Assembly (NCBI GenBank): GCA_934163035.1
Contig: CAKPJX010000005.1
Coordinates: 1,465 to 65,464, forward strand
Length of the DNA: 64,000 bases
Source: an uncultured Bacilli bacterium
GTDB taxonomy: Bacteria; Bacillota_I; Bacilli_A; RF39; UBA660
Direction: 5' to 3'
The notes under the pieces are model-generated. The model was not told where the DNA came from and did no database searches. It was given only the letters and a program-made list of their open reading frames with translations. Below, piece by piece: positions 25,098 to 53,437 of this stretch. Position 1 is the stretch's first letter. Each line of letters begins with the position of its first letter. The translations under genes were made by a program, and so were the position numbers.

Positions 25098-25742
25098 ATG
25101 AAAAAGGCTATCTTTATTTTTTTATTTATAATATTAATGTCATTTGGAATATCGATAAAAAAGCCAAATAAAAAAGTAACTGTAGTAAACACTAAAAGAA
25201 TAAAAATAGATACAGTAGAAAGTGCTAATCAGGATATTGTAGGCCATATAAAAATACCTAATACTAAAATAGATTATAACCTCGTAAAAACAACAAATAA
25301 TAAATACTATTTAAATCATAATATAAAAAAAGAAATTGATCCCCTAGGAGCTGTTTTTATAGATTATAGAAACAAACTATCAGATAGAAAAATTCTAATA
25401 TATGGTCATAATAGTAAAACAAAAATAGCCCCCTTAAAAGAATTAGGAAACTATCTTGATTACACTTATTTCAAAAATAATAATCTAATCTACTTAAAAT
25501 TAGAAAATAATAATTACATCTATAAAATATTTTCAGTAATATTAATAGATAAAGATAATTATACTTATACCAAATTGAATTATACAACTGATGAATATAT
25601 AAATCATCTAAATTGGTTACAAAACACTTCAATTCATAAAAGTAACGTAGAATTAGAACCGAATTCTCACATCATAATTATTCAAACATGTAACTACTAT
25701 CCTAAAGAATCATTTTTATTAATAAGTGCTAAAAGGAGCTAA
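25098..25742 (+). CDS. srtB: Class B sortase-like transpeptidase
   Basis: N-terminal TM, IVGHIKIPNTKIDYNLVKTTNNKYYLNHN, GAVFIDYRN, ILIYGHN (His), IIIIQTC (Cys), C-terminal SAKR. Confidence 0.75.
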   Translation: MKKAIFIFLFIILMSFGISIKKPNKKVTVVNTKRIKIDTVESANQDIVGHIKIPNTKIDYNLVKTTNNKYYLNHNIKKEIDPLGAVFIDYRNKLSDRKILIYGHNSKTKIAPLKELGNYLDYTYFKNNNLIYLKLENNNYIYKIFSVILIDKDNYTYTKLNYTTDEYINHLNWLQNTSIHKSNVELEPNSHIIIIQTCNYYPKESFLLISAKRS

Positions 25743-25743
25743 T

Positions 25744-26802
25744 ATGAAAAAGAAACTTATATTTAAAATAATAACTATAATACTTTTAATGATCTCTGTA
25801 AAAGTAAATGCTAAAAACTATTCTGATGCTACTATGAAAGAACTATCAAATCAAACATCTTGCTTAGAAGAAGAAATAATTCCAGAATTTACTAACAATA
25901 CTTTAACAGGTATCAATATAATTATTACTATTCCAAAAGATTGCGATGAAGAAGAATTAATAATAGCTCCATCTATATTAGAAGCTATTAAACAATATAG
26001 CAGAATAAACCCAGGAGATAATATAAATATTAATTTAAAAATAGATAATAAATCAAATTATAACTATAACTATATTAGTAATAGCTTTATTCTAAGTACT
26101 GAAAATTTACAAAGATTAGGTATAAAAGAAAATCTAATAGATACAAAAGCCATTGGTTTTGATAGGCAAAAGGTATATGAAATATCAACTATATATAGAA
26201 CAATTAATCTCCCTATAATTTCTCTTTATAACTACAATAATTTATTAGAAGATAAGGACTTATCAGATATAAGTTTGGACAAAAAACTTAAAGAAAAAGG
26301 TTATACCGGTATAAATGAATTAGACAATTACTATCTGGATTTTTATAATACGAAATATAATTTAAATGAAAAAGCTTTATCAGATTTAACTTATTCAACC
26401 ATAAAAGATTTATTTAAAGGAAAGGTAACTACTAATAAAGAAACAAATCCAAACATTATAAAATTATCATATGACTATTTTTATAATAAACTCTTATCAT
26501 TTAATTTTAAAGATCAAGAAGCTAGTGATTACAATAGTGAAGATTATAGTATAGGAACATATATGAGAACAAATCTGGGAAGCAATTATTTAAATGATAA
26601 ATTTATGTATATAAGATCTAATACATATAGTGAAATAGAAAAAATGTCACTTAAGTTAAATAAGGAATATACTACTTCAGCATATAATGATTATAATTAC
26701 TATATACACTTAGAATTTAAGTTAAAAAAAGAAATAGATAAAGTAGTTAATACTTTAAATGATAATGATATTATAATTCCACCAAATACAGGTATTGATT
26801 AA
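25744..26802 (+). CDS. Secreted protein of unknown function ending in PPNTGID
   Basis: Start moved to the ATG after AAGGAG. Signal peptide MKKKLIFKIITIILLMISVKVNA. The C-terminus carries a (S/P)PxTG-like motif but no hydrophobic tail. Confidence 0.6.
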   Translation: MKKKLIFKIITIILLMISVKVNAKNYSDATMKELSNQTSCLEEEIIPEFTNNTLTGINIIITIPKDCDEEELIIAPSILEAIKQYSRINPGDNININLKIDNKSNYNYNYISNSFILSTENLQRLGIKENLIDTKAIGFDRQKVYEISTIYRTINLPIISLYNYNNLLEDKDLSDISLDKKLKEKGYTGINELDNYYLDFYNTKYNLNEKALSDLTYSTIKDLFKGKVTTNKETNPNIIKLSYDYFYNKLLSFNFKDQEASDYNSEDYSIGTYMRTNLGSNYLNDKFMYIRSNTYSEIEKMSLKLNKEYTTSAYNDYNYYIHLEFKLKKEIDKVVNTLNDNDIIIPPNTGID

Positions 26803-26826: not shown

Positions 26827-26896
26827 TATAATAATATTCCAATTTATTTTAAAATGCGTTATACTTAAAAAGAATAGAATAATAGGTGGTGAGATA

Positions 26897-28450
26897 ATGG
26901 TTATAAAAAGTCCATATTCTTTTTTAATAAAAAACTTTAGAAAAGTCCATATTGCTTTATTATTAATTAGTATATATGTATACATAAAAACCATGAGTGT
27001 ATATTCTTTTGTTAAACAATTTTTATCTTTAGGTACATATGACTATTATAGTGAATCAATATCTAAATATGTATCACCATTACTTTGTATAGCAACAGTC
27101 ATAATTATAGTTGCAACTACGACAATTCTATTACTCTTAAAGCATAAAGAAAAGCCATGGAAACTATATTTAATCCCTATAGCCAACTATGCTCTATTAT
27201 TTGTAACTTTTTTAGTTATATCAAATTTCTTTAATGCATACACTGGTCAAACAGAAACAGCAGCCGCAAGAGCAATGCGTGATTTCCTAGTTTTAACAAC
27301 ACTACCTCAATATGCTTTCTTTGTTATTTTAATAATTCGTATATTAGGAATAGATTTAAAAAAATTTAACTTTAAAGCAGACCAAGAATTTTTAGAATTA
27401 ACACCTGAAGATAAAAAAGAATTTGAAATTAATATTGAGATAGATAAAGAAAGTTATAAACGTCTTTTTAAACGTCTACTTAGAAATTTAAGTTATTTGT
27501 ATCAAGAACATAAAAAAATAGCTAATACCATCATGGTTATACTTGGAGTAGTAGTTTTATATAATAGTTATAAATTTATCTTTATAACAAATAAGACATA
27601 TAAAACAGGAGATACATTCCAAAATAGTGGCTATGAAATTACAATAAATAACTCTTACTATACAGATAAAGATTATAAAGGAGATATAGTTGATAAAAAT
27701 AAAAACTTTATAATTGTAGATGTCACTATAAAAAATAATTCTAATAAAAGAAAAATAAATTTTAATAGATTTCACATTATAAATGGAATAAAAAACTATA
27801 CACCAACTTCTAAAACTTATGAAACATATTTCCAAGATTTAGGTAATGCCTATGAGGAAAAAACTATTGCTAAACTAGAAACTTATAGAACACTTTTAAT
27901 ATATAAAGTAGATAAAGAATTATCAAAAAATAGATTTGTAATGTATTATCAAGAATTAAATGGTAACAGTAATCACTTAAGAAAAATTAAACTTAAAACT
28001 ATAGACTTATCAAAAATAAATACACAAAAAAGCAAATTATTAACTGAGAAAATAAATTTAAAGATTAATGGTGTAGAGGAAAATATTATCTTTGATAATT
28101 TAAGCTTTGTTAGTAGTACTACATATTCTAAAAAAACATGCGATGCAGGAGACTGTTATCCTAAAGATGCAGAATTTACTATTTCTCCTAAGTATAAAAT
28201 TATAAAAATGGACTTTGTATCTGACGAAACAGATGGCAAAGACATGATTGACTTTTTATCTAAATATGGTAAAATTAATTATATAGATAGTAAAGGTAAG
28301 AAAAAGGCTTTAAACATAGAGAATGCAGTAGAAAAATCATATTATGGAAAATATGTTTATATAAAAGCTCCAGAAAATATTAGTAAAGCAAAAAAAATAT
28401 ATTTAGACATAACCATTAGAAATAATAAGTACCGATACAGGCTAAAATAA
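26897..28450 (+). CDS. Polytopic membrane protein with a large extracytoplasmic C-terminal domain, function unknown
   Basis: Start moved to the ATG at 26897 after GGTGGTGAG. About 5 hydrophobic helices, then a beta-rich region (FIIVDVTIKNNSNKR...). Confidence 0.6.
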   Translation: MVIKSPYSFLIKNFRKVHIALLLISIYVYIKTMSVYSFVKQFLSLGTYDYYSESISKYVSPLLCIATVIIIVATTTILLLLKHKEKPWKLYLIPIANYALLFVTFLVISNFFNAYTGQTETAAARAMRDFLVLTTLPQYAFFVILIIRILGIDLKKFNFKADQEFLELTPEDKKEFEINIEIDKESYKRLFKRLLRNLSYLYQEHKKIANTIMVILGVVVLYNSYKFIFITNKTYKTGDTFQNSGYEITINNSYYTDKDYKGDIVDKNKNFIIVDVTIKNNSNKRKINFNRFHIINGIKNYTPTSKTYETYFQDLGNAYEEKTIAKLETYRTLLIYKVDKELSKNRFVMYYQELNGNSNHLRKIKLKTIDLSKINTQKSKLLTEKINLKINGVEENIIFDNLSFVSSTTYSKKTCDAGDCYPKDAEFTISPKYKIIKMDFVSDETDGKDMIDFLSKYGKINYIDSKGKKKALNIENAVEKSYYGKYVYIKAPENISKAKKIYLDITIRNNKYRYRLK

Positions 28451-28461: not shown

Positions 28462-30228
28462 ATGGATAATAATAAGTTAAAAAGAAAAATTAAATTACTA
28501 ATCACCTTAGCTATAGTAGCAGTATTTGTCTGGTTTGTTATCTTAGGACCAAAACTTAGTTTTAGATCAGATGAAAAAATGATGGAAGAAGCAGCTAAGA
28601 GATATTATGAAATAAATTCTGATAAACTTCCAACTGGTACAAGAATAAAAACTTTAACATTACAAGATTTATATAAAGGTGGTTTCCTTGAGAAAGACAT
28701 TTATCTACCATACAGTAAAGAGCCTTGTTCATTAACAGAAAGCTGGGTAAAAACAAGACAAGAAAATGGTAGTTATAAATATTATGTTTATCTACAATGC
28801 GGAGCACTAAAGTCAAATGTTGATCATACAGGACCAGTAATTATATTAAATGGTGAAGATGAGATAACAATTAATAAAGATGATAAATATGAAGAATTAG
28901 GTGTAAAGAAAGTTACTGACAATCAAGATGGAACAATTGATGTAAATAAAGTAACTATAGATTCATCAAAAGTCAATACTAATAAAAATGGTACTTATGA
29001 AGTTACTTACACAATATCAGATAGTTTTAATAATAAAACAGTAAAAACAAGAAAAGTAAACGTTATTGAAACAATATCTAATGTTGTAGATAAAAATACT
29101 AAAGGCGGAATTTATCAAGGTGAAGTTGAAAATAATTATATAATGCTATCAGGAATAAAATATAGAATTATTGGACGTGATGCAAATAGTAATATAAAAA
29201 TAGTAACTGATAGAGATATATCAAATGTTAACTATAATGGTATAGATAAATGGTTAGATTACTTTTATGATAATATGCCTAGTGAAGCAAAGAAATATAT
29301 AGTAAAGAGTAACTATTGCAATGACACAGTAAAAAAAGCAAAAGCAGATACTTATAAATCATGTGAAAGTACTAAAAACAAAAATGTATATATTTTATCA
29401 CTAAAAGAGATTAATGAAAGTACAAATGAGGATGGTTATAGTTACTTATATCCAGCAACAATAAGCTGGCTATCCAATCCATCTGGTGATAAGACAGCAC
29501 TTACAACAAGAAATTGGTTCAATGGTACTACTAGTAAATTCTATGAGTTTGATAAAAAATATAATTTTGGTGTTAGACCAGTTGTTACTATAAAAGGTGA
29601 TTCCTTAATTAAAGGTGGAAATGGTAGTGAAGATAATCCATATACCTTCAAAGAAACAAAAACAGGTAAAGCAGATGAATTATTAAATACTAGACATTCA
29701 GGAGAATATATATCATACTCAAATACAACATTTAGAATAGTTGAAATTGCTAGCGATAGTACTATTAAAGTTGTATCAACAGATGCAATTTTAGAAAATA
29801 TACAAAGTAATGGTACTAGTATCTATAATCCTAAACAAAAAAATAATATAGGATATATTATTAATCAACAAATAAACAGTAAAATAAATACTAAATATTT
29901 TGTAAATAAAGAAATAGAAGTACCAGTGTATAAAAATATATCTAGTTATAAAAAAGAAGAGAAAACTAATAAATATAAAGTAAAAGTTGCAGCTCCAAAC
30001 ATGTATGATATGTTTTCAGCAATGGATACAGGTCATGGATATTGGTTACTTAATTCTTCTCAAAATAAAGCTGTAAAAAATATTGTTTCAGATATAGGTG
30101 TTATCTATTACAGCGAAATGGAGCAAGATATTTCAAGTGGAGCAAGAATTGTAGGTTACTTAAATGCCAAATGTAAAATTGTTACAGGTAGTGGAACAGA
30201 AAATGATCCATATAGAATAACGAAATAG
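28462..30228 (+). CDS. Membrane-anchored extracellular protein: ComGC-like head, Ig-like domain, C-terminal domain ending GSGTENDPYRITK. Paralog of 52220-53437.
   Basis: N-terminal TM LLITLAIVAVFVWFVILG. LPTGTRIKTLTLQDLYKGGFLEKD...C...C resembles pilin-type head domains. DHTGPVIILNGEDEITI...YEVTYTISD is Ig-like. Confidence 0.6.
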   Translation: MDNNKLKRKIKLLITLAIVAVFVWFVILGPKLSFRSDEKMMEEAAKRYYEINSDKLPTGTRIKTLTLQDLYKGGFLEKDIYLPYSKEPCSLTESWVKTRQENGSYKYYVYLQCGALKSNVDHTGPVIILNGEDEITINKDDKYEELGVKKVTDNQDGTIDVNKVTIDSSKVNTNKNGTYEVTYTISDSFNNKTVKTRKVNVIETISNVVDKNTKGGIYQGEVENNYIMLSGIKYRIIGRDANSNIKIVTDRDISNVNYNGIDKWLDYFYDNMPSEAKKYIVKSNYCNDTVKKAKADTYKSCESTKNKNVYILSLKEINESTNEDGYSYLYPATISWLSNPSGDKTALTTRNWFNGTTSKFYEFDKKYNFGVRPVVTIKGDSLIKGGNGSEDNPYTFKETKTGKADELLNTRHSGEYISYSNTTFRIVEIASDSTIKVVSTDAILENIQSNGTSIYNPKQKNNIGYIINQQINSKINTKYFVNKEIEVPVYKNISSYKKEEKTNKYKVKVAAPNMYDMFSAMDTGHGYWLLNSSQNKAVKNIVSDIGVIYYSEMEQDISSGARIVGYLNAKCKIVTGSGTENDPYRITK

Positions 30229-30236: not shown

Positions 30237-31043
30237 ATGAAGAAAGTAAATAAGAGGAAAGGCAATAGATTAATATTAGTAATAATATTATTAAGCATTG
30301 CATTACTGGCTCTTATCTTTCTTCTTGTAAGGGGGATAAAAAATCTAATGCCCATTTACAAGAGTGAAGAAAGAACAGAAAATATCAAAAATTATAAAGT
30401 TACAGATGTTGATGCCGAAGTAGCAGCCTGGTTAAGAGTACAAGGAACAAATATTGACTATCCAGTAATTGATAATAATACTACTGTTGGAGTTAGCAGA
30501 ATAAAGCCAGATTTTACTTGGACACAAGGAGATATTAGTCCGCTACCAAATAAGTTATTCATATTAGGACATAATATAAAAAATGTATCTTCTAATCCTC
30601 TTATTACAGCAAAAGATCATACAAGATTTGAACAATTATTATCGTTCGTTTACTATGATTTCATAAAAGAAAATAAATATATTCAATATACAATAGATGG
30701 AACAGACTACTTATATAAAATATTCTCAGTTGCTTTTGTAGATGATTCTACACTAGACTATGAAAGTACCAATTATAGTAAAGAAGAAATGAAGAAATAC
30801 ATAAATCAATCAAAAAAAGATAGTTTCTTTGATTTTGATATAGATGTTAATGAAAATGATAAAATAATAAGCTTAATCACATGTACTAGATTCTTTGGAG
30901 CAACAAGAAAGTACGATTTTAAAATAGATGCTAGAATGGTAAGAAAAAAAGAAAGAGCCACTAACTATAGTGTTAAAAAGAACAAAAACTATAGTAAGAT
31001 AGAAAAAATAATGAGAGGTGAAAATGATGAACAAGAAGCATAA
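30237..31043 (+). CDS. srtB: Class B sortase-like transpeptidase (second copy)
   Basis: N-terminal TM, VAAWLRVQGTNIDYPVIDNN, FILGHNIKN (His), LITCTRF (Cys), IDARMVRK (Arg). Confidence 0.75.
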   Translation: MKKVNKRKGNRLILVIILLSIALLALIFLLVRGIKNLMPIYKSEERTENIKNYKVTDVDAEVAAWLRVQGTNIDYPVIDNNTTVGVSRIKPDFTWTQGDISPLPNKLFILGHNIKNVSSNPLITAKDHTRFEQLLSFVYYDFIKENKYIQYTIDGTDYLYKIFSVAFVDDSTLDYESTNYSKEEMKKYINQSKKDSFFDFDIDVNENDKIISLITCTRFFGATRKYDFKIDARMVRKKERATNYSVKKNKNYSKIEKIMRGENDEQEA

Positions 31044-33847: not shown

Positions 33848-34285
33848 ATGAATAAAGGTATATTAACAGTAGGAATAATTATTATGGCTATCACCGGGCT
33901 TGTAATGTTTAATATCATTACAAGCTGGTCACGTGGTGATGAATTAGATTATTATTTAGTTAAAGAAACAGCAGAAGCAGCCATGGAAGATGCTGTTGAC
34001 ACAACATTTTATAGGGATTCAGGACAAATTAGAATGGATTCAGAAAAGTTTGTAGAAAGCTTCCTTATACGTTTTGCTAAAGGTGTAGATAATACAAGAA
34101 ATTATGATATTAGATTTTATGATTTGAATGAGGTTCCACCTAAAGTTAGTGTAAAGGTTGACTCTGTAAACTCCTTAAGATATGACACGAATGAAACAGT
34201 ACAAATAAGTACAACCTATGATGGCATTATTGAGTCAACTAATAAACATGACCAATATGTAATCAATAGTAATAAGGAATTTTGA
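33848..34285 (+). CDS. Small protein with a prepilin-like N-terminus (MNKG + hydrophobic helix), candidate minor pilin or TadE/F-like
   Basis: MNKGILTVGIIIMAITGLVMFNII. Lies immediately upstream of the cpaB-like gene. RBS AAGGAGG. Confidence 0.4.
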   Translation: MNKGILTVGIIIMAITGLVMFNIITSWSRGDELDYYLVKETAEAAMEDAVDTTFYRDSGQIRMDSEKFVESFLIRFAKGVDNTRNYDIRFYDLNEVPPKVSVKVDSVNSLRYDTNETVQISTTYDGIIESTNKHDQYVINSNKEF

Positions 34286-40619: not shown

Positions 40620-40620
40620 T

Positions 40621-41360: not shown

Positions 41361-43451
41361 ATGACTGAATATACTAGTGCTAACACAATTACCGATATGC
41401 TTAGAAGTATTCTAAGTACTATAATAGATAGGCCAGCATTTCTTATACTTAGTTTAATGTATGAGATTTTCTTTAATGTTGCCAATGCAGAGTTATTTAA
41501 CGATTCTACTATTAGAAGATTTTATTATAAAATCCAATTAATACTTGGCGTTTTTATGATATTTAAATTGTCTATTTCAGTATTAGAAGCTATCGTAAAT
41601 CCCGAAAAGCTAACAGCAAAAAAGACAGGTACAATGTCAATAATTGCTAGAGTATTTATATCATTAGCACTATTGGCTGCATTAACCCCAATAAATATTC
41701 CAAATCCTAAGAATGAATATGAAAGAAAATTAAAAAATAACGGTTTAATCTTTGGTATTTTATATTCACTACAATATCGAATATTGCAACAGAATACGCT
41801 GGGAAGATTAGTATTAGGAGATGAATTTGTTAGCAGTGAAAGTAGCGGTCAAAACAAAAAAATAAGGGAAACAGTTTTGTCAACCTCAGATGCTGCTAAT
41901 TCCTTCTCATCAACTATCTTAAAAACGTTTATGAGAATAAACTTAGTACCAAAAAGTGAAAGACAAACAAATAATGATGGTAAGCCAGATGAACTTAACA
42001 AAAACAATTGGGTATGTAAGGACATAGACAGCACACTTATAGATACATATAGAGACGTAAATGCAGATCCACAACAATTACTTATGTTCATCAATTATGA
42101 TTGCGATACATCATCAAGTGATGGTGTAGTATCGCACCTTAAATCTAAATTAAATAAATTAGCTAGCAAGGCTGATTATGCTTTTACATATAACCCATTA
42201 GGTGGAATTGCTGCATATGTATTTGCTTTCTTATTATTAACATTTACTGTTGATGTGGCAATTAGAGCCATAAAAATTGCAATATTAAGATTAATAGCTC
42301 CGATACCAGTTATTAGTTATATGAGCCCTAACCCAAAGGATAATGGTGCTATGGGAACTTGGGCAAAATCATTAGCGACAACATATCTATCACTATTTAC
42401 TAGACTACTTATAATTTACTTAGTAATATATTTAATTCAAGACATGATTCAAAATGGTATGGCAGCAAAAACTACTGGTGGCTTGATAGGCGGCATTTCA
42501 TTTATATTGATTTGCTTTGGCTTATTCTTATTTGCCAGACAAGCTCCAAAGTTTATTCAGGATGCACTTGGAATAAAAGCCGGTAGTGGAAGCGTTGGTC
42601 TTGCACTTGCTGCATCAGGACTTGGAACAATAAGGGGTGGAGGAAAACCAAGAGATGCTTGGAGCAATATGATGGAAGCATCAAGAGCTGCACAAAGTGG
42701 TGGAAAAGATCCTGTTTCAGGAAATTCGTATAGAGCTAACTTGGGTTCATATAAAGATATGAGAGATGCAACGGTAAAGAAAGAAAAGGATAAATATGAT
42801 AAGAATTTAGCTCAAAATTATTATGAAAGAGCATTAGATATTGATGATCAGGATGGGGCAGGCTATAAAAGTCGTCGATGGTGGCAGTCAAAAGACTCTG
42901 GAGAAGCTAGAGCAAAAACTCAAACCTTTGACGCAAATAAACAACGATATAAGGCGAATTGGCAAACACATGAACGTGCAACTGGTAGAGGTGTAACAAC
43001 AAGGGCTGGATCGGAATTCCATACTAGAAGAGATCCGTATCCAACACCGACCCCATCTGGACAACAAGGAACACCACCATCTGGACCACCAAGTAGAAAT
43101 AGAGGGGATGCTGCCGATAAAAGTATTGGTATAGAAGTAAGACCAGTATATAAACATAAACCAATAAAAGTAGGTGGTAAAACTATAACTATAGGAGAAC
43201 CAGAGATGCGTCAAAACGGTGGTTCTGGATATGCTGTTGACGGATCAATACCAAGTGGACCAATACCAGGCGGACCAACACCAAGTGGACCAACACCAGC
43301 CGGACCAACACCAGCCGGACCAACACCAGGTGGACCAACACCAGCCGGACCAACACCAGCTGGACCAACACCAGGTGGACCAACACCAGATGGACCAACA
43401 CCAGGCGGACCAACACCAGGTGGACCAACACCAGGTGGACCAACAGCGTAA
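41361..43451 (+). CDS. VirB6/TrbL-like polytopic T4SS channel protein with a Pro-rich repeat tail
   Basis: At least 6 hydrophobic helices. Sits between the VirB2-like and VirB3/VirB4-like genes. The C-terminal 65 aa are GPTPx pentapeptide repeats. Confidence 0.6.
43248..43448 (+). repeat. In-frame 15-nt tandem repeat, about 13 copies (GGACCAACACCAGNN), encoding (GPTPx)n
   Basis: Directly visible: [66 protein letters not shown]. Confidence 0.9.
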
Positions 43452-46135: not shown

Positions 46136-49018
46136 ATGTCATCTTATAAAGCTAATAGGAATGATGGAAACAGCGGTGTTTCTGATAAAGAAAGAGCAGA
46201 TAAAAATAATGCAAAAAACGTCCAAGTTGCTGCTGATGTAGCCATGCAATCCGGCCACCCAGTAGTTGCAGCAGTTGGTGGTGCAGTAAAAGTTGGTGAC
46301 ATGTTAACTGGTGGTAAAGTAAGTGGAGAGCTAGGTAAAGCCGCAACCAAAATTATGGACAAAACACCTGGTGGGAAACAACTACAGAATGTTTCAAATA
46401 AATTAAGTGAATCTGGAGCAAGTGATGCTATAGGCAAAGCTGCAGCAATTCAAGGGGGAACATCAGGCACACCAACCAGTGGAGCAACCAGTAGTGCAAC
46501 AGGTACAACCTCTCCAACAGTCGGAACCAATACTGGTAAATCAGGTGCAACGGGTACCACACCAACTACTGAACAAAATCCTCTATTGCCTGCATCATCA
46601 GATGGCCAAGCAACAGACAATAATATTGCTGGAGTACCACCTGGCGTTGGCAAAAAAAGAGGTTCTAGTTTATTAGACGATGATGATGATAAACAAAAAG
46701 TTGAATTAACAGGTCAGGCAACATTAAGCAAGGTTGCTAAGATTTCTATTTTAACCTCCCTTTTTGCATCACCATTTTTGATAGTTATTTTAGTTGTAAT
46801 GACAGCTACTACCGTATTTGGTACATATAAAGACGGACTTGGTATAAATACTGTTAGTGGAGGAAAAACAGGAAACATAGATTATGTAGAAGATAGTCAA
46901 GAAGCAACAGAATTTTACGAAAGAGTAAATGAAGTAAAGGAAGAAATGCTTAGAGAAGGAAAAAGTGTTGATGCATTTAGAATAGTTGCTGTGTACCATA
47001 TTCTATCAAAATACAATGGTAAATTATCATACAAAACGATGTCAAAGCAAAAAATAGAAAAGATAGCTGATGCCATGCTAAATAATGGCATGTATGATGA
47101 GGAAACTTTCAAAAATAATTTAGTAGATGATATTATAAAATCATATGTATCAAAAACTAGTAAAGAAAGAAGAGAAGCAATAGCAGATGAAATCTTTCAA
47201 TATATAGTAGATTATTATGAATTCATAGGTGAAGAGATGGATACTTGTGTATCATCGTCTGGAAATTGTGCATATAGCATAAAAGGATTTTATTCAAAAT
47301 CAACGGGAAACATAAGTAAAAATATGAACATTTCAAACTTAAAAGTGAGACTGATGCAGTGTGGTGGCGGTTACGGACGAGGAACATGGGGAAAACCTCT
47401 TGCTGGAGAAGAATTAATTGACTTTGAAAAGTATGTCCTAGGTGTAACCTATGGTGAGATTGGTACTAGTTTTAGTGATGAAGCTATCAAAGCCCAAATA
47501 GTTGCCGTAAGAAGTTTCTCACTCAGTAGACCTGCCATGATGAATAATAGTCTAGGAAAGAAATTATCACAGGAAAATAATCAATGGATTCTTCAAATGT
47601 CATCATGTGTAGCAGATCAAGTATATTGTGATCCAGATCAAGGTTGTTCAAGAATGAATGATGGTACCCAGGGTGGTACTATTAGAAGTGGACACTCAGT
47701 TGGAACCTTTAGATCACCTGCCTTACCATCTGACAGCAAACTAAGAACCCTAGCAAAAGAAGTAGAAGGTGAAGTCCTAGTAAATAATCAAGGAAACATA
47801 ATAAGTACCTCATATATAAATACAACACAGAACTTATTTAACAAATTGGCAAAACAGGGACTAAATTATAAACAAATATTGCTACAAGTATATAATCAAG
47901 GATCAACTAATTCTGGAGCCAAAGATGTAACTAAAATGAGTTGTGGAACCACTACAGGTATATGCAGTTCTTCAACAGGAGAATATGCTAGCTGGAAACA
48001 AACAGATTCAAGATGGAAAAATGTAAGTTTGGGTAATAGAACAGTTGGTCAGATCGGTTGTCTTGCAACTTCTGTCAGTATATTAGTAGCAAAAAGTGGT
48101 GTTCCTACCGTGCTTGGTGATAATTTTAATCCAGGAACTTTTGTTCAACACTTAAGTAAAAATGGTGGCTTCGTAAATGGAAACTTTATATGGGATTCAG
48201 TAAGCAAAGTAGCCCCAGGCTTCCAATATGCAGGCCGTAAAGACTTAAGTGGATATACTGATCAACAAAAAATTAATGCAATAAGAGATTTAGTATCACA
48301 AGGATACTATGTTACAATTCAAGTAAGTAGTTCAAATCCACAACACTGGGTTGCAGTTAATGATGTAGTTGGCAATCAAGTAAATATATATGATCCAAGT
48401 GATTCAAGGACAATATACGGTCAAAGATATCCTATCTCAAGAACCAAATTAGTTAGTTACTTTAAGGCTACCAAAACTGAAAGTAGTGGAGCTAGCACTA
48501 CTACACCAACATCCTCAGCTAAAGGATTCCAGTGGCCAATTGCTAAAGAGCACAGCGGAATGGCACAACTTAATAATAATAGATTATATAAAATGGAACA
48601 TAAAGGAATTGACATAACCGCAAAGTCTGCAAGCTATAAAGGTAAAATAAACATTATTGCAAGTTATGATGGAGTAGTTGAATATGCATACAACGATATT
48701 TCACCTAAATATGATAACTACTATGGCAAAAGTGGGGCAACAGCTTCTTGGATGCATGATGGTTTTGGAAACAGTATTAAAATTAGGCACTCATATAAGG
48801 GACAGATAATTTATACATATTATGCCCATTTAACTCAAGATGTAAGAGTTAAAGCAGGAGATAGAGTCGTAGCAGGTCAAGTAATAGCAACAATGGGATC
48901 AAGTGGAAATTCAACCGGAACACACCTTCACTTTGAAACAAGGGTTGGTAGTAGTTCAAGAACTTATACAAATAAGAATAACCCACTAAATTATGTATCA
49001 CCGAATAGTTACCCATAA
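46136..49018 (+). CDS. T4SS-associated multidomain cell-wall hydrolase (SpoIID-like + Cys peptidase-like + M23 peptidase)
   Basis: N-terminal G/T/S-rich region, TM ISILTSLFASPFLIVILVVMTATTVF. SpoIID-like YVLGVTYGEIGTSFSDEAIKAQIVAVRSFSLSRP...ADQVYCDP. GCLATSVSILVAKSG...HWVAVNDV (Cys/His). M23 HKGIDI...GNSTGTHLHFE. Confidence 0.8.
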   Translation: MSSYKANRNDGNSGVSDKERADKNNAKNVQVAADVAMQSGHPVVAAVGGAVKVGDMLTGGKVSGELGKAATKIMDKTPGGKQLQNVSNKLSESGASDAIGKAAAIQGGTSGTPTSGATSSATGTTSPTVGTNTGKSGATGTTPTTEQNPLLPASSDGQATDNNIAGVPPGVGKKRGSSLLDDDDDKQKVELTGQATLSKVAKISILTSLFASPFLIVILVVMTATTVFGTYKDGLGINTVSGGKTGNIDYVEDSQEATEFYERVNEVKEEMLREGKSVDAFRIVAVYHILSKYNGKLSYKTMSKQKIEKIADAMLNNGMYDEETFKNNLVDDIIKSYVSKTSKERREAIADEIFQYIVDYYEFIGEEMDTCVSSSGNCAYSIKGFYSKSTGNISKNMNISNLKVRLMQCGGGYGRGTWGKPLAGEELIDFEKYVLGVTYGEIGTSFSDEAIKAQIVAVRSFSLSRPAMMNNSLGKKLSQENNQWILQMSSCVADQVYCDPDQGCSRMNDGTQGGTIRSGHSVGTFRSPALPSDSKLRTLAKEVEGEVLVNNQGNIISTSYINTTQNLFNKLAKQGLNYKQILLQVYNQGSTNSGAKDVTKMSCGTTTGICSSSTGEYASWKQTDSRWKNVSLGNRTVGQIGCLATSVSILVAKSGVPTVLGDNFNPGTFVQHLSKNGGFVNGNFIWDSVSKVAPGFQYAGRKDLSGYTDQQKINAIRDLVSQGYYVTIQVSSSNPQHWVAVNDVVGNQVNIYDPSDSRTIYGQRYPISRTKLVSYFKATKTESSGASTTTPTSSAKGFQWPIAKEHSGMAQLNNNRLYKMEHKGIDITAKSASYKGKINIIASYDGVVEYAYNDISPKYDNYYGKSGATASWMHDGFGNSIKIRHSYKGQIIYTYYAHLTQDVRVKAGDRVVAGQVIATMGSSGNSTGTHLHFETRVGSSSRTYTNKNNPLNYVSPNSYP

Positions 49019-49096: not shown

Positions 49097-49882
49097 ATGA
49101 ACAAGAAAACTCGTTATATAGTATTATTAGTGATATTATTAATATATTTTGCAGTTCTATTTCTAATATATGGAAAAGATCATTTGAAAAGGGAAAAAGA
49201 AGAAACTGTCATAATAATAGGTAATAGCACAATCTGGAAAAAGGAAAAACAAAAATGGTCGACAATTAAATCCTTATCTGATAAAAAAGATCTAGGATGG
49301 AAATTATATGATACCTATATAGACAATAAAAAAATTGGAAAGTATTACTTGTGGAATGATAATACTGAATGGTTTCTATTTGATAAGAAAAAAAATGCAT
49401 ATAACTACCAAGGAGAATTATTAGCATATAGATCAAACTATAAAATGCCCGTTAAGTCATTTACTACAGAAACGGTAACAGACTACACATATTTAGAAAA
49501 ATTACTATCAGATAATAATCTATCAAACACAGGTACTCCAACAGTAAGTAGTGTGACTAAAGTTGATATTGACAGTGACGGAATTGATGAAAAAATTTAT
49601 GTATTTAGTAATGTATTTAGTGATGATGAAATACTTCCAGAGAATAGTTATTCATTTGTTTTTCTTGAGAAAGAATCTAAGACATATATGATGTATAGTT
49701 ATACAGATGAATTTGTCGGTTTATCTGGTTGCCAACCGTTTGTTGATTATTTAATAGATATAGATGAAGACAACAATTACGAAATAGTTTTAAAGTGTAG
49801 TCAGTATGATGAGTTACCTCCAATAAATACACTATATAAGTTTGATAAGGGTAAATTTATTGAAATAATAAATAATCAATAG
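49097..49882 (+). CDS. Membrane-anchored extracytoplasmic protein, unknown. Its position would fit a VirB8/TcpC/PrgL-like component.
   Basis: RBS AGGAGG and N-terminal TM YIVLLVILLIYFAVLFLIYG. No motif recognised, so the VirB8-like idea rests on position only. Confidence 0.45.
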   Translation: MNKKTRYIVLLVILLIYFAVLFLIYGKDHLKREKEETVIIIGNSTIWKKEKQKWSTIKSLSDKKDLGWKLYDTYIDNKKIGKYYLWNDNTEWFLFDKKKNAYNYQGELLAYRSNYKMPVKSFTTETVTDYTYLEKLLSDNNLSNTGTPTVSSVTKVDIDSDGIDEKIYVFSNVFSDDEILPENSYSFVFLEKESKTYMMYSYTDEFVGLSGCQPFVDYLIDIDEDNNYEIVLKCSQYDELPPINTLYKFDKGKFIEIINNQ

Positions 49883-49943: not shown

Positions 49944-52202
49944 ATGAAATTAAAGTTTCGAGCAGACTCGCATGATTTATTAATATTCGGAATCTTTTCC
50001 ATATTTCTTTTATATGTCGTTGCCTTAGCTGTTATAAATCTAAAAACTTTTGCAGCAACAGGAGAGTTATATGGACTAAATCCATTTCCAGCATTTGAAC
50101 CAGAATATATTGTAACTACAATCACTTTTTATTTTATTGCCTTGGGAGCTTTATTTGCTAGTGTTAGTTCATACTTTTTCGAAAGAGAAAAAGGCTTTGG
50201 TCTAACGACCGAAAAAAAAGACAAAGGATATTCAAGATGGGCCAAAGCAAAAGAAATTAAAGAAGAGTTAGAGCAAGTACCGATTTTACAAAAAAATTCC
50301 AAAGCAGCTGGTATTCCACTGATTTTGAATGAACAAGAAATGTGGGTTGATAATGGTGAATACCATTCATTAATTATTGGTGCCACCGGTTCCGGAAAAA
50401 CTCAAGGAGTAGTTTTTCCACAGGTTCATAGTTTATCAAAAGCAAGAGAATCTATGATAATTACCGATCCAAAAGGTGAAATATATGAAAAAACAAGTAT
50501 GATGTTAAGGGATAGGGGCTATCAAATATTATTGTTAAATTTCCGTGATCCACAAAATGGTAGTGCTTGGAATCCTCTAACAATGCCATATAGAATGTAT
50601 AAAAGTGGTAATCAGGATAAAGCAATTGAGCTATTAGATGACTTAGCCCTAAATATTCTATATGATGAGTCAAACAAAAATGCTGACCCATTCTGGGAAA
50701 AAACTTCAGCTGACTATTTTTCAGGAGTAGCACTTGGCTTATTTGAAGATGCCAAAGAAGAGGAAATAAACATTAACAGTATTTCTTTAGCTACAACAGT
50801 CGGAGAAGAAAAATTTGGTGGTTCAACATATATAAAAGAGTACTTTGATGCTAAAGATCCATCCAGTGCAGCAGCCATAAATGCCTCAAGTACGATTACA
50901 GCTCCAACTGAAACAAAAGGAAGTATTTTATCGGTTTTCAAACAAAAGGTTAAATTATTTGCCTCACGTGATAATTTAAGTGAAATGTTATCGTACAGTA
51001 GTATAGATCTAGAAAGTATTGGTGAGAAACCTACCGCTGTATTTATTGTTATTCAAGATGAAAAAAAGACGTATCATTCATTAGTTACTATTTTATTAAA
51101 GCAGATATATGAAACATTAATATCAACTGCTCAAAAGCATGGTGGAAAATTACCTGTTAGAACCAACTTTATTCTTGATGAGTTTGCTAACATGCCTCCA
51201 TTAAAAGATGTTACAACAATGATTACCGCAGCTCGTTCAAGACTTATTAGATTTACTATGATTATCCAAAACTTTGCCCAACTAGATTCTGTATACGGAA
51301 AAGAAGATGCTGAAACAATTAGAGGTAACTGTGGAAATATTATTTATCTAATTACAACAGAATTAAAGGCATTAGAGGAAATATCAAAAATGTGTGGTGA
51401 AGTAAAATCTAAAAAAGATGATAAAACCGCTTCAACACCACTAGTAACTGTATCAGATCTTCAGAGAATGAAACAATATGAAACAGTAATATTACGTATG
51501 CGTAAACAACCATTCAAGACAAAATTAACTCCAAATTATAAAATTAATTGGGGTAAAAAATATCCAGATGCCGGCTATCCAGTAAGACCAAAAAGACAAG
51601 TTCATACATTTGATATTAAAGCGTTTGTAAAAGAACAAAAAAAGAAAAAGTTAATGGAGATGATGAATTCCTCATCTAGCAGTGCTGGAGCAGGTTCTAT
51701 GCCACCACTACCTGGTGGAATTCCAAGAATGCCAAACTTTCAAAGCACACCTTCTTTTGAGCCAAGGAAACCACTTAATAGTATAGATTCAGGCACTAAC
51801 AATCGCTTACCAATTACTCCAACTTTAAATCAAGATAATTTTATACCACCAGTACATGAAGAAAGAAGCAGGCCAAACAACAGTGGTAGTGGAAGCAACA
51901 ATTTAGGATTTGATGTTGATGAGTTAGTTAAGAAAATAGATGCTAAAATAGCAGAACTTGAAGAAGAAGAAAAACGAGAAAAAGAAAAACAGGAAAAAGA
52001 AAAACAAGCCAATTTCAATATCAACAATAAGCCAACAGCTATTCCATCAACTAATATAGCAAAGAAAGAGGAACTAATACCACAGAATAATAACCTTATT
52101 CCAAATAAAAGCGAGGCTAAAGTTGGTCAACAAGAAATCAATCTTGATTTACAAGACAATGAAGAAGATGATGACTTCTTTGATGATTTCTTTGATAATT
52201 AA
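49944..52202 (+). CDS. virD4: Type IV coupling protein (VirD4/TraG family) with a long low-complexity C-terminal tail
   Basis: Two N-terminal TMs, Walker A IIGATGSGKTQG, Walker B NFILDEFANMPPL, IIQNFAQL...RGNCGN. The tail ends in NEEDDDFFDDFFDN. Confidence 0.85.
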   Translation: MKLKFRADSHDLLIFGIFSIFLLYVVALAVINLKTFAATGELYGLNPFPAFEPEYIVTTITFYFIALGALFASVSSYFFEREKGFGLTTEKKDKGYSRWAKAKEIKEELEQVPILQKNSKAAGIPLILNEQEMWVDNGEYHSLIIGATGSGKTQGVVFPQVHSLSKARESMIITDPKGEIYEKTSMMLRDRGYQILLLNFRDPQNGSAWNPLTMPYRMYKSGNQDKAIELLDDLALNILYDESNKNADPFWEKTSADYFSGVALGLFEDAKEEEININSISLATTVGEEKFGGSTYIKEYFDAKDPSSAAAINASSTITAPTETKGSILSVFKQKVKLFASRDNLSEMLSYSSIDLESIGEKPTAVFIVIQDEKKTYHSLVTILLKQIYETLISTAQKHGGKLPVRTNFILDEFANMPPLKDVTTMITAARSRLIRFTMIIQNFAQLDSVYGKEDAETIRGNCGNIIYLITTELKALEEISKMCGEVKSKKDDKTASTPLVTVSDLQRMKQYETVILRMRKQPFKTKLTPNYKINWGKKYPDAGYPVRPKRQVHTFDIKAFVKEQKKKKLMEMMNSSSSSAGAGSMPPLPGGIPRMPNFQSTPSFEPRKPLNSIDSGTNNRLPITPTLNQDNFIPPVHEERSRPNNSGSGSNNLGFDVDELVKKIDAKIAELEEEEKREKEKQEKEKQANFNINNKPTAIPSTNIAKKEELIPQNNNLIPNKSEAKVGQQEINLDLQDNEEDDDFFDDFFDN

Positions 52203-52219
52203 AAGAGGGAGGAATTTAT

Positions 52220-53437
52220 ATGAGTTTAAATTTCAATGTAGGTAAAATAAATCCTGCTAAAGAAGAGGTTGAAGAAGAAAAAAAAGAAGATAAAGATGAT
52301 GAAGAATTTGATGAAGCTCCAAGAAATAACAATGAATTAAAATTAAGGCTAATTAAGTTAGCTTCACTACTTGGAGTTGCTATAGCAGCCCTTTTAGCAG
52401 TATTATTTATTATTTCATTATTTAATAAAAAAACATATAAATATGAAGATATTGAAACAATAATGCAAAAAGCTGCTATATCTTATTTCAAAAGCTATCC
52501 AGACAGCTTACCTAAAAATGAGAAACAAACAGCCCAAATTTCAGCAGCAACATTAATAAGTACAGGTAAAATGAAAGATTTAACTGAGTATACAAAGAAG
52601 GGTGTAATCTGTGATGGAAAAGTAGAAGTTGCTAAAAGAGGCGATGAATACATATATACACCTTACCTAACTTGTGGAGACGATTATAAAACTCAAAAAC
52701 TAAGTTCCTTAATAGCCTCAAGTGAGATAGTAAAAGAAGGATATGGACTATATAAAGTAGATAATTCATACATTTACAGAGGTGAATTAGTAGATAATTA
52801 TGTTCTAATAAATGAGAGATTATGGAGAATTGTTAAATTAGATTCAAATGAAAATAGTATCCTAGTTTTAGATAATATATTTTCATCACAAGTGCCATGG
52901 GATGATAGATATAATAATGAAAGAAAATACAACGCTGGTAATAATGTATTTTCAGCAAGTAGAATTAAAGAAACTCTAAATGCACTATATAATGGTGAAA
53001 TACTTGAAAATAAAGGAGAACTATTAGACAACAATACAAAAGCACATATGGTAAGCTTTGATCTATGTACAGGAAAAAGAAACTTAGATGATACTACACA
53101 CAATAATTCAACTGAATGTGCTAGCGTTGAAAAAGATGTTAAAATAGGTTTGTTAACAGTTTCTGATTATTTATTAGCTAGTATCGATTCAAACTGTACT
53201 GCTACAAATTCCAGATCTTGTCAAAACTACAATTACTTAAATAATAAAACAGATTTCTGGTTAGCAACAGCTCAAAATAACACAACATATCAAGTTTACA
53301 CAGTTAATACAAGCGGAGTAATAAAAGAGGAATCAGCTAGTAACTATGCTAATGCCAGAGCAGTAATTCATCTAAATTCAAATACTTTAGTAAAAAGTGG
53401 AACCGGTACAGAAAAAGATCCATACGTTATAAAATAG
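52220..53437 (+). CDS. Membrane-anchored extracellular protein, shorter paralog of 28462-30228
   Basis: Acidic N-terminus, TM LASLLGVAIAALLAVLFIISLF. LPKNEKQTAQISAATLISTGKMKD...C...C head. IYRGELVDNYVLINERLWRIV. C-terminus SGTGTEKDPYVIK. Confidence 0.6.
   Translation: MSLNFNVGKINPAKEEVEEEKKEDKDDEEFDEAPRNNNELKLRLIKLASLLGVAIAALLAVLFIISLFNKKTYKYEDIETIMQKAAISYFKSYPDSLPKNEKQTAQISAATLISTGKMKDLTEYTKKGVICDGKVEVAKRGDEYIYTPYLTCGDDYKTQKLSSLIASSEIVKEGYGLYKVDNSYIYRGELVDNYVLINERLWRIVKLDSNENSILVLDNIFSSQVPWDDRYNNERKYNAGNNVFSASRIKETLNALYNGEILENKGELLDNNTKAHMVSFDLCTGKRNLDDTTHNNSTECASVEKDVKIGLLTVSDYLLASIDSNCTATNSRSCQNYNYLNNKTDFWLATAQNNTTYQVYTVNTSGVIKEESASNYANARAVIHLNSNTLVKSGTGTEKDPYVIK

Follow-up and report, generated by a model that had tools for sequence, protein, structure and literature searches.

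What does a secretion apparatus of the conjugation type do when it is encoded on a chromosome with no relaxase beside it? This question is raised by a locus of about 28 kb in a 64,000-nt stretch of DNA (hereafter called the window) from an uncultured Bacilli bacterium of the RF39 lineage (UBA660; GenBank assembly GCA_934163035.1, contig CAKPJX010000005.1, positions 1,465 to 65,464). As the initial annotation of this DNA had described, the locus consists of 24 consecutive open reading frames (ORFs) on the + strand (25098-53437) and is bounded by greA (24560-25030) and a rhodanese gene (53494-53748). Its products are predicted to form three parts: surface proteins together with sortase-like enzymes, a divergent Tad-like filament module, and a type IV secretion system (T4SS) of the MPF_FATA type. 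The homologies of these products indicate that the locus encodes a conjugation-derived envelope machine built like the transfer operons of pLS20 and pAW63/pXO2. This identity, and the domestication of the machine by its host, are very likely to be correct. The best explanation overall, to which we assign a probability of roughly 0.5, is a chromosomally fixed, host-co-opted Tad-plus-T4SS machine with a non-conjugative use.

The gene layout had been thought to be unlike that of any characterised element. We found that the same composite build is present on plasmids of the pLS20 family (Bacillus subtilis), on pAW63, pXO2, pBT9727 and pBMB67 (Bacillus cereus group), on a Priestia koreensis plasmid (NZ_CP061869) and on a Mycoplasmatota plasmid (CP074574). 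When the window proteins were compared with 72,556 plasmids by tblastn, the best VirB4 matches were on B. thuringiensis plasmids of the pAW63/pXO2/pBMB67 family, with a Mycoplasmatota plasmid as another top match, and the best matches of the Tad-type ATPase were on the pLS20 family. The composite shared by these plasmids and the locus begins with an adhesin or immunoglobulin-like (Ig-like) protein and continues with a DUF5411 or small transmembrane (TM) protein, a SAF/CpaB protein, a ParA-like protein, a CpaF/'VirB11' ATPase, two T2SSF-like proteins and a small pilin-like protein. To these are joined VirD4, VirB6 and a PrgI-like protein, together with a split VirB4 and a wall hydrolase. On pBMB67 there are a MobP3 relaxase, VirD4, TrbL, PrgI, an unnamed ORF and VirB4; further along are an S-layer protein, one large and one small protein, a SAF protein, an AAA ATPase and an ATPase of the T2SS/T4P/T4SS family, followed by two membrane proteins, a small protein and a DUF4320 protein. 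The pLS20-like plasmids encode a thioester adhesin followed by a small TM protein, the ATPase, a pair of TM proteins, one protein resembling DUF4320 and two of 47 aa, and then VirD4, VirB6, DUF5592, an unnamed ORF, VirB4, an ORF, the hydrolase and a MobP2 relaxase. On the Priestia plasmid the Ig-like, DUF5411, SAF, ParA-like, CpaF/VirB11 and T2SSF genes follow one another in the order of the window.

Most core proteins of the locus have pairwise or profile homology to plasmid counterparts. Against pBMB67 or pLS20, tblastn gave E values of 1e-19 for the CpaB-like protein, 3e-40 for the ATPase, 1e-7 and 4.5e-5 for the TadB-like and TadC-like proteins, 5e-13 for the N-terminal part of VirB4, 3e-80 for VirB4 and 7e-64 for VirD4. 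The locus and plasmid proteins are nevertheless only 23-35% identical, and the arrangement differs in several respects. VirD4 lies at the end of the T4SS block in the locus and at its start on the plasmids, the ParA-like gene of the locus follows the pilin-like genes, and the hydrolase is of the SpoIID/M23 type rather than a lytic transglycosylase/NlpC-P60 protein. Moreover, the plasmids carry a MobP2 or MobP3 relaxase, an origin of transfer (oriT) and genes for partition and regulation, and pLS20 and pAW63 are self-transmissible, whereas the locus is chromosomal and species-wide and no relaxase was found. The papers on pLS20 (PMC8557374) and pAW63 (PMC1196294) speak only of a "VirB11 homolog", and a 2025 review of T4SSs states that those of Gram-positive bacteria "universally lack VirB11 homologs" (PMC12857230). 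Characterised elements therefore do contain the pairing; that it amounts to a whole Tad-like module has been insufficiently recognised.

We then considered whether the locus is an island, as it was first called, in the sense of variable or foreign DNA. It is instead found at the same chromosomal site across species and diverges together with its flank. Comparison of the greA-rhodanese interval among relatives, suggested in the initial annotation as a way to detect presence or absence of the locus, gave no case of absence in the contigs compared. A GreA protein identical to that of the window was found in 10 places; all nine contigs that reach past greA have the locus directly after this gene, and the tenth ends there. 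In two further species (L101 and L103, with CpaB-like proteins 73% and 68% identical to that of the window) greA is again the left boundary, and the only difference at this end is that sortase 1 and the neighbouring PPNTG protein are missing or replaced.

The breadth of conservation was determined with VirB4 as the query and one genome per GTDB species. At least 545 species representatives have a confirmed VirB4 relative. The best 80, with 80-97% identity, are all metagenome-assembled genomes (MAGs) of uncultured gut Bacilli from humans, ruminants, rabbits, mice and chickens, which the databases label as Bacilli, Tenericutes, Mycoplasma sp. CAG:877, Candidatus Onthousia or Candidatus Faecimonas. 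The genes from the CpaB-like gene to RmuC are colinear in 78 of these 80 loci, and the rhodanese, VTT and RmuC flank is kept wherever the contig extends that far. In a library of 1.8 billion representatives at 50% identity, the VirB4 proteins of this clade fall into a single full-length cluster, beyond which identity drops to 45%, 41% and at most 35% for the next relatives. The plasmid VirB4s are about 28% identical. One complete MAG chromosome of the clade measures 1.52 Mb, and the genomes of the clade appear to be reduced.

Codon-level comparisons with four species gave ratios of nonsynonymous to synonymous substitution rates (dN/dS) of 0.017-0.06 for VirB4, 0.04-0.10 for the TadB-like protein, 0.05-0.13 for VirD4 and 0.08-0.16 for the Tad-type ATPase, as compared with 0.03-0.08 for the flanking RmuC. 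Synonymous divergence (dS) in the locus genes was about the same as in RmuC for three of the four pairs (for example, 0.6-0.94 versus 0.65, and 1.1-1.5 versus 1.24), and the fourth pair was saturated. The divergence of most of the locus proteins tested also tracks that of RmuC (rho 0.3-0.57), whereas that of the ATPase does not (rho -0.23). Taken together, these sequence comparisons indicate that the locus is fixed in the chromosome, vertically inherited and subject to strong purifying selection throughout a large clade of uncultured, low-GC gut Bacilli. It was captured long ago, has since been inherited with the chromosome and has been kept intact by selection, a history that is incompatible with a recent integrative and conjugative element (ICE) or a decaying remnant. 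The proposal of a decayed ICE therefore did not survive, since the ORFs are intact and dN/dS is 0.02-0.16, whereas the proposal of a domesticated conjugation-like machine fits the evidence.

The reported lack of a relaxase, an integrase and attachment (att) repeats held over a wider range, as neither the window nor the 9.8 kb of source contig beyond it contains any of them. No ORF of the locus matched a relaxase or recombinase family in Pfam and NCBIfam scans, and searches of the window and of about 100 fetched loci with the plasmid MobP2 and MobP3 relaxases as queries gave no match. Within 10 kb on either side of VirB4 in 80 other species, the screen yielded 53 representative ORFs without a window homolog that matched 35 Pfam families; neither a relaxase nor an integrase was among the 25 strongest families, which were inspected. 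These 25 families are of housekeeping types (TrpS, SpoVAD, NAPRTase, P-type ATPase, RelA/SpoT and NlpC/P60 hydrolases), and there is a single IS605 TnpB. A repeat search found no direct repeats bracketing the locus, the sole real repeat being a 15-nt coding repeat in the VirB6 tail. Because a relaxase, an integrase and att sites are all missing in cis, we conclude that the locus is not self-transmissible.

Predicted features of the locus, with the evidence for each assignment (positions are those of the window)
Feature	Position	Strand	Evidence and remarks
Sortase-like enzyme 1	25098..25742	+	Pfam Sortase E 2.9e-8; class B-like; catalytic 'QTC' motif
Secreted 352-358-aa protein	25726..26802	+	C-terminus ...IIIPPNTGID, without hydrophobic tail; variable part
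Polytopic membrane protein, extracellular DUF4352 domain	26897..28450	+	Pfam DUF4352 E 2.7e-6
Membrane-anchored surface protein, bacterial Ig-like domain	28462..30228	+	Pfam Bact_surface_Ig-like E 6.4e-16; candidate adhesin
Sortase-like enzyme 2	30237..31043	+	Pfam Sortase E 2.5e-7; TLxTC-like 'LITCTRF'
Large Cys-rich protein, secreted or anchored	31018..33834	+	No Pfam/NCBIfam match
DUF5411 protein	33848..34285	+	Pfam DUF5411 E 2.6e-43; short leader and hydrophobic helix, MNKG/ILTVGIIIM...
CpaB/RcpC-like protein, SAF and RcpC domains, N-terminal TM helix	34317..35123	+	TIGR03177 CpaB E 4.2e-7; RcpC E 2.7e-4
TadA/CpaF-type secretion ATPase	35160..36698	+	Pfam T2SSE E 4e-28; Walker A GETGSGKTE; Q/P/N-rich C-terminal tail
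TadB-like platform protein	36712..37614	+	Remote T2SSF-like, hhalign
TadC-like platform protein	37614..38423	+	Remote T2SSF-like, hhalign
55-aa pilin-like protein	38500..38667	+	MKAATG/ELNLTVITLIAIAAVIGFFW...; candidate major subunit
155-aa protein, candidate minor pilin	38686..39153	+	Class-III-signal-like N-terminus MRDAxGG/hydrophobic (alignment)
TadZ/CpaE-like candidate, N-terminal and ParA/MinD-like domain	39192..40211	+	339 aa; weak BcsQ match E 1.5e-4 at P-loop
VirB2-like membrane protein 1, two-TM hairpin	40269..40619	+	Pfam T4SS_pilin at family level; Mbov_0395 pilin-like family E 1.2e-3
VirB2-like protein 2, signal peptide, extracellular domain, C-terminal two-TM hairpin	40690..41346	+	T4SS_pilin E 6.7e-3
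VirB6/TrbL-like polytopic channel protein	41361..43451	+	Pfam TrbL_4 E 6e-7; pLS20_p028 and Mbov_0396 families
VirB3/PrgI-like two-TM protein, 102 aa	43470..43778	+	hhalign 84.6%, E 6.8e-6 to plasmid PrgI/DUF5592; directly upstream of VirB4
Split-off N-terminal domain of VirB4, 184 aa	43763..44317	+	Mycoplasma ICE VirB4 model positions 98-276/894, E 5.1e-16
VirB4 ATPase, C-terminal motor part, 599 aa	44314..46113	+	PDB 4ag5 E 2.6e-55 (Thermoanaerobacter VirB4 domain); GTSGSGKST, LMVDEAH
Membrane-anchored peptidoglycan hydrolase, VirB1 analogue	46136..49018	+	Pfam M23 E 5.5e-18; SpoIID E 1.5e-8 (SpoIID/LytB-like and M23 endopeptidase)
261-aa bitopic protein at VirB8 position	49097..49882	+	No family match
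VirD4-type coupling protein, two N-terminal TM helices, Walker A/B, TraG-D_C domain	49944..52202	+	Pfam T4SS-DNA_transf E 1.7e-56; GATGSGKTQ, FILDEFANMP
405-aa membrane-anchored extracellular protein	52220..53437	+	C-terminal motif ...GTGTEKDPYVIK; last gene of locus

Family searches agreed with the main gene assignments of the initial annotation, and all five of the motifs that it quoted (GETGSGKTE, GTSGSGKST, LMVDEAH, GATGSGKTQ and FILDEFANMP) are present in the translations. The 184-aa ORF upstream of VirB4 was reassigned as the split-off N-terminal part of that protein. The ORF that precedes VirB4 on pBMB67 is a homolog of it (E 4.7e-13), pLS20 likewise has a separate ORF before VirB4, and the median identity of the 184-aa ORF across 77 loci is 75%. 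The best model of VirB4 itself in NCBIfam is the Mycoplasma ICE VirB4 family (E 8e-104), with 348 bits against a cut-off of 590 and against 164 bits for the next family; the CD1110 family gave E 6e-48. CedD, the ATPase of the Ced system, was a weak VirB4 match (E 7e-12). VirD4 is similarly well conserved, with a median identity of 72% in 72 loci. Its long low-complexity C-terminal extension (52100-52202) ends in an acidic/aromatic tail, ...EEDDDFFDDFFDN / ...NEEDDDFFDDFFDN, and resembles the tail of TraD of the F plasmid, which binds the relaxosome protein TraM. By analogy, the VirD4 tail could be a docking site for cargo or an adaptor.

The assignment of both VirB2-like proteins has family-level support, as 21 of 31 family members match Pfam T4SS_pilin (best E 1.5e-4). 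The second VirB2-like protein is poorly conserved, with a full-length homolog in only 7-14 of the 80 loci. The TrbL_4 match of the VirB6-like protein scores 29.6 bits against a cut-off of 27. The C-terminus of this protein has the form (GPTP)n and is specified by about 16 tandem 15-nt repeats encoding (G/A)GPTP (43211-43475). This repeat is the GC maximum of the window (0.38), and the length of the tail varies, only 7 of 74 homologs being within 20% of the length of the window protein. Two of the three domains proposed for the wall hydrolase (SpoIID and M23) were recovered; the middle region could not be assigned. Some species have NlpC/P60-type hydrolase genes without a window homolog downstream of VirB4. 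The 261-aa protein is kept in 50 loci at about 36% identity, and searches against protein families, PDB profiles and the VirB8-like protein of pLS20 (hhalign) gave no match.

In PDB profile searches with the ATPase of the Tad-like module, FlaI (73.6 bits) and CpaF (69.3 bits) scored above VirB11 (56.8 bits), whereas in NCBIfam the VirB11 and TadA families scored 122 and 108 bits, both below cut-off, and these models do not separate the two. The protein is 34% identical to the 'VirB11' of the pLS20 family. Its C-terminal tail of about 160 residues (~350-512) is rich in Q, P and N. The homologs on pLS20 and pBMB67 are shorter (~400-490 aa) and the matches stop near residue 310-325; tail length also differs among species, 19 of 58 homologs being full length by the criterion used. 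The TIGR03177 and RcpC scores of the CpaB-like protein are below the cut-offs of these models in the window protein. PF16976 is precomputed in most of its close relatives, one of which NCBI names 'RcpC/CpaB family'. The window protein is 35% identical to the SAF protein of pBMB67.

The two platform proteins were recognised by profile comparison. With a query alignment that took in three plasmid homologs, the TadB-like family aligned with the Priestia plasmid protein annotated as T2SSF by the Prokaryotic Genome Annotation Pipeline (hhalign 99.2%, E 1.3e-19); this Priestia protein itself matches Pfam T2SSF with E 3.4e-5 and 24.2 bits, the cut-off being 25.2. The TadC-like family aligned with a plasmid T2SSF-like set (hhalign 94.5%, E 7.6e-8) that includes a Mycoplasmatota-plasmid protein (L003:29250-30077) with an above-cut-off Pfam T2SSF match (E 4.9e-8). 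The TadB-like and TadC-like proteins are paralogs (hhalign 93%). Their link to T2SSF thus runs through plasmid intermediates only. PDB-sequence profile searches returned no match for the TadB-like, TadC-like or TadZ-like families. The TadZ candidate, labelled ParA/MinD-like in the initial annotation, has a weak BcsQ match at the P-loop; its Walker A motif is degenerate and has the conserved form T(E/D)HAG(A/S)TT without lysine. ParA-like (AAA_31) genes are also present in the Tad-like module of the pBMB67, Priestia and Mycoplasmatota plasmids.

Three small proteins, of 55 aa and 155 aa and the DUF5411 protein, have a prepilin-like shape in common, in which a short charged leader ending in Gly is followed by a hydrophobic helix. 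The N-terminus of the 55-aa protein (MKAATG/ELNLTVITLIAIAAV...) is highly conserved in 65 loci and has a TGxLN motif in common with the small protein of pBMB67. With Glu at +1 and no EY (MKAATG/ELNLTVITL...), it lacks the Flp G/XXXXEY motif and has only a class-III-signal-like shape. The label 'TadE-like' given to the 155-aa protein could not be verified, as hhalign detected no homology of this family to DUF4320 and no TadE homology was detectable either. Neither TadE nor DUF4320 homology was detectable for the DUF5411 protein, for which the position and shape suggest a candidate pseudopilin. Its gene directly precedes the SAF/CpaB gene both here and on the Priestia plasmid. BLASTP between the window and Priestia DUF5411 proteins gave nothing, though both match the Pfam model.

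The start of the locus is its variable part. Both of the proteins first taken for class B sortases contain a Pfam Sortase domain above its own cut-off. The class is less firm: the class B model TIGR03064 is the best NCBIfam match of both, with scores (117.6 bits for sortase 1; 66.9 bits, E 1.5e-18, for sortase 2) below the cut-off of 153.75. Sortase 1 is not found in other species, e.g. L101. At the position of sortase 2 the two other species have a gene of similar length, with a weak Sortase match in L101 and no Pfam match in L103. The protein after sortase 1 ends in a conserved PPNTGI(D/E) motif. A frameshifted LPXTG-type signal for this protein (a hydrophobic tail followed by KKNR in the +1 frame, 26803-26896) was considered and rejected as chance, as the variants L010 and L019 lack it. 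The sole variation among the contigs with identical GreA is a pair of extra genes after the PPNTG protein in some strains of the species (L010 12447-17266; L019 2869-7653), which encode an 870-aa VWA-domain protein and a 682-aa protein with Flg_new repeats that ends in an LPNTG-type anchor. Because of these extra genes in some strains, we consider the start of the locus to be a variable adhesin cassette.

By comparison, the DUF4352 gene is kept after greA in both of the further species. It is called as 517 aa in all related contigs and probably starts at the ATG at 26897 rather than at the TTG at 26795. The Ig-like surface protein is also kept in other species, and an Ig-like protein is encoded upstream of DUF5411 on the Priestia plasmid. 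Counterparts of the Cys-rich protein in relatives have 930-1124 aa, and the 405-aa protein at the end of the locus is kept in 61 loci at about 43% identity. Three surface proteins share a motif at the extreme C-terminus: ...GSGTENDPYRITK (window 30190-30228), ...GTGTEKDPYVIK (53399-53437) and ...GDGSITSPYIIE (L010 ~15020-15056). This common motif suggests a shared domain or signal. No protein of the locus contains a complete sorting signal. A SpaA-domain protein resembling major pilins of the SpaH/EbpB family, with a complete LPTTG signal, is encoded 3 kb downstream of the locus (56691-58382, + strand); it is a possible substrate of the sortase-like enzymes, which have no obvious substrate inside the locus.

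The gene families of both flanks agree with the housekeeping surroundings noted earlier. On the left are greA, dnaE, lspA, rluD, ruvX, mltG and U32 peptidases, on the right the rhodanese gene, VTT, rmuC, tig, lon and sporulation genes, and the source contig (75 kb) continues for 9.8 kb beyond the window with housekeeping genes throughout. No tRNA and no Rfam family was found in the window. Promoter and terminator scans of this AT-rich DNA gave counts equal to those of shuffled sequence. The best sigma-70-like site of the locus (TTGACA-17-TATTAT, 40216-40244) is located within the 57 nt that separate the TadZ-like gene from the first VirB2-like gene and may be an internal promoter of the T4SS half, although such matches are no commoner than in shuffled sequence. 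Sporulation-type genes in the flank (62298-63948) include SpoVID-like, YsxE-like and YunB genes and an adjoining sigma factor, and SpoVAD is encoded in a related locus (L008 20323-22101). Such genes are unexpected for organisms labelled 'Tenericutes' or 'Mycoplasma sp.' in databases; the flanking ones suggest a walled, possibly spore-forming, genome-reduced lineage of Bacilli.

How might such a machine work? The wall hydrolase (SpoIID/M23) would open the wall locally. The CpaF-type ATPase, together with the TadB-like and TadC-like platform, would then polymerise, and perhaps retract, a short filament of the small pilin-like proteins. The CpaF motor of Caulobacter is reported to be bifunctional (PMC6920026). 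Together with the Ig-like and Cys-rich surface proteins and the sortase-like enzymes, the filament would make or tighten contact with a neighbouring cell. VirD4 would select a cytoplasmic cargo, which a channel of the VirB6, VirB3-like, VirB4 and VirB2-like proteins would export; export is favoured over uptake because VirD4 is conserved. T4SS loci without a relaxase are conventionally read as protein secretion systems or as products of degradation (PMC4027160), and since degradation is excluded here, this logic points to co-option. The missing relaxase and the conservation at housekeeping level argue for a non-conjugative use that serves the host, namely the contact-dependent delivery or exchange of protein or another cargo that is not its own DNA, a use also suggested for the chromosomal T4SS of Patescibacteria. 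We put forward this part of the explanation tentatively, with odds a little short of even.

Several observations weigh against this explanation. The characterised close relatives of the locus proteins all work in DNA conjugation. VirD4 scores above the cut-off of the conjugal CD1115 family of NCBIfam (305.8 bits versus 250), and a relaxase, together with an oriT, could be located elsewhere in the genome. We infer the functional coupling of the Tad-like module and the T4SS only from their conserved adjacency, here and on the plasmids. The Tad assignment is itself partly one of remote, transitive homology: none of 38 platform proteins of the clade, scanned singly, has a direct Pfam T2SSF match, the Flp G/XXXXEY motif is absent from all three pilin-like proteins, and no A24 prepilin peptidase (TadV/CpaA) was found among the window ORFs or the called contig genes, the sole signal peptidase being LspA (A8). 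AlphaFold2 modelling of the TadC-like protein (26 sequences, 76-92% identity) reached a mean predicted local distance difference test (pLDDT) score of 64, and a Foldseek search of this model against the PDB gave only meaningless helical matches (E > 0.1). Finally, all of the sequences used are metagenome assemblies; chimerism is unlikely, as the same arrangement is found across many independent assemblies.

Other explanations must be weighed against a host-serving, non-conjugative machine. One is that a machine domesticated in the same way still carries out conjugation, exporting chromosomal DNA or mobilising other elements with a relaxase encoded elsewhere, with an unrecognised DNA-processing protein or with neither. 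It would then resemble the chromosomal transfer mediated by mycoplasma ICEs that have no canonical relaxase (PMC12857230). The preference of VirB4 for the Mycoplasma ICE model, the weak matches of the VirB2-like and VirB6-like proteins to the neighbouring Mycoplasma ICE families, the conjugal score and TraG-D_C domain of VirD4, and the fact that the closest plasmid homologs are all conjugation genes are as this explanation would predict. We consider it rather unlikely nonetheless, because genes for coupling proteins and relaxases are usually adjacent in conjugative systems (PMC12102498), whereas no relaxase was found within 10 kb on either side of VirB4 in 80 species or anywhere in the 75-kb contig; no oriT-like feature was recognised either, although no search was aimed at oriT. 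An ordinary ICE with its mobility genes beyond the window, or the decaying remnant of one, was also considered. The GC content of the locus is above that of its flanks (0.30-0.38 versus 0.25-0.29), and the homologs of known function are all on mobile elements. Since dS is equal to that of the flank, the raised GC is not evidence of recent transfer, and probably reflects the composition of conserved coding sequence rich in Gly and Pro. The constant site in all identical-GreA contigs that reach past greA and in two other species, the housekeeping genes that extend to the contig ends without bracketing repeats or a tRNA, the purifying selection on intact ORFs in the four comparisons, and the distance of VirB4 from its plasmid relatives make an ICE of either kind very improbable.

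The Tad-like filament and the T4SS might instead import DNA in the manner of competence, as do ComB of Helicobacter and Ced of archaea. Tad-like competence pili occur in Micrococcus. The weak CedD match and the apparently reduced genomes agree with this idea, and chromosomal T4SSs that import DNA without a relaxase are reported to exist (PMC9905601; PMC13395361). There is, however, a well-conserved VirD4, a protein that recruits cytoplasmic cargo for export, and no ComEC-like or ComEA-like gene in the locus. ComB and Ced are not known to have a VirD4. We therefore regard DNA uptake as quite improbable. It is also improbable that the two modules are merely independent neighbours, a Tad pilus for adhesion to host or mucus beside a separate T4SS. 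The uncultured gut clade TANB77 does have an order-wide conserved Tad cluster with no T4SS (PMC11680825), and the promoter-like site discussed above lies between the modules, with the same caveat as to shuffled sequence. On the other hand, the pairing recurs on the unrelated pLS20, pBMB67/pAW63, Priestia and Mycoplasmatota plasmids and forms one transfer operon in pLS20, and the gene order is kept in 78 of 80 species.

If the co-opted, non-conjugative machine is the correct reading, the locus offers a second natural experiment, besides Patescibacteria, on the repurposing of conjugation machines. A complete Tad-like module, rather than a stray ATPase, is stably joined to a Gram-positive T4SS, both on plasmids and as a host-fixed, relaxase-less system with housekeeping-level conservation in hundreds of gut species. 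How cargo passes through the thick wall, and whether Gram-positive T4SSs have acquired uses beyond conjugation, are open questions in the field (PMC12857230). Genetics is possible in the related pLS20 system, so that what the Tad-like module contributes to a Gram-positive T4SS can be tested now. The locus also offers a molecular way into the biology of an abundant gut lineage that is uncultured, and possibly into its dependence on a partner. A bolder extension, which we consider doubtful, is that this is a lineage-defining, possibly essential cell-to-cell machine of genome-reduced gut Bacilli, in which a retractile Tad-like filament is the contact or wall-spanning element. Were that so, the takeover of a conjugation apparatus by its host would have occurred independently a second time, in addition to Patescibacteria. 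The filament would be the functional equivalent of the conjugative pilus that Gram-positive T4SSs are said to lack, and the machine would allow cells with an epibiotic or dependent lifestyle to take macromolecules from neighbouring bacteria or host cells, or to deliver them.

In the literature we found no description of a pLS20-type Tad-plus-T4SS operon fixed across hundreds of gut Bacilli species, and publications on RF39 that concern a T4SS, pilus or secretion system yielded no description of the locus. The layout is known from plasmids, relaxase-less chromosomal T4SSs from Patescibacteria and a clade-wide Tad system from TANB77; their combination is apparently undescribed.

Comparison with known systems places each part of the locus. 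Like the Tad/Flp (type IVc) pili of Caulobacter (Cpa), Aggregatibacter (Tad) and Bifidobacterium breve (Tad), it has a CpaF/TadA ATPase, a CpaB-like protein, paired TadB/TadC-like platforms, a ParA-like TadZ/CpaE candidate and small pilin-like proteins. It differs from them in having no Flp motif and no TadV/CpaA in the window, in platforms that are beyond direct T2SSF detection and in being joined to a T4SS. The TANB77 gut clade is similar in that a Tad cluster is conserved across a whole uncultured order (PMC11680825). That the 'conserved pilus cluster' of TANB77 is the present locus was considered and rejected: that cluster differs in gene sizes, has a fused TadBC and seven pilin-like genes, and is without a T4SS (PMC11680825).

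The T4SS part invites comparison with the Mycoplasma ICE (Mbov_0395/0396/0397). Mycoplasma ICEs carry a DDE recombinase and inverted-repeat ends and occur in multiple copies. Their family provides the best curated model for VirB4 of the locus, though with a score below the family cut-off, and the local order of a pilin-like protein, a polytopic TM protein and VirB4 is the same. The host lineage of the locus is related to Mollicutes by database naming, and Mycoplasma ICEs, like the locus, have no canonical relaxase (PMC12857230). They differ in being mobile and in residing in wall-less cells, and have not been reported with a Tad-like module, a hydrolase or sortases. Streptococcus suis 89K also encodes a Gram-positive T4SS of the VirB1/3/4/6/8/D4 type and is reported to export a protein effector (PMC12857230), which makes a protein cargo possible for such a machine. 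In contrast to the locus, 89K is a mobile pathogenicity island of one pathogen lineage; it is not clade-fixed and has not been described with a Tad-like module.

The best precedent is provided by Patescibacteria such as Southlakia epibionticum, whose chromosomal T4SS the proposed domestication would parallel by analogy (PMC12102498; PMC12857230). These are another phylum, Tad is not mentioned and the type IV pili are encoded in a separate gene cluster (PMC12102498). Essentiality of the Patescibacteria T4SS was determined by transposon-insertion sequencing (Tn-seq), whereas the locus is known here from sequence alone. In both cases, however, genome-reduced uncultured bacteria have a monoderm, MPF_FATA-related T4SS on the chromosome. 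That of Patescibacteria is widely conserved, has VirB2-like pilin genes, usually has no relaxase and is read as co-opted and non-conjugative (PMC12102498; PMC12857230). The locus has the traits of such relaxase-less chromosomal systems, being chromosomal, clade-wide, vertically inherited and furnished with VirB2-like pilin genes.

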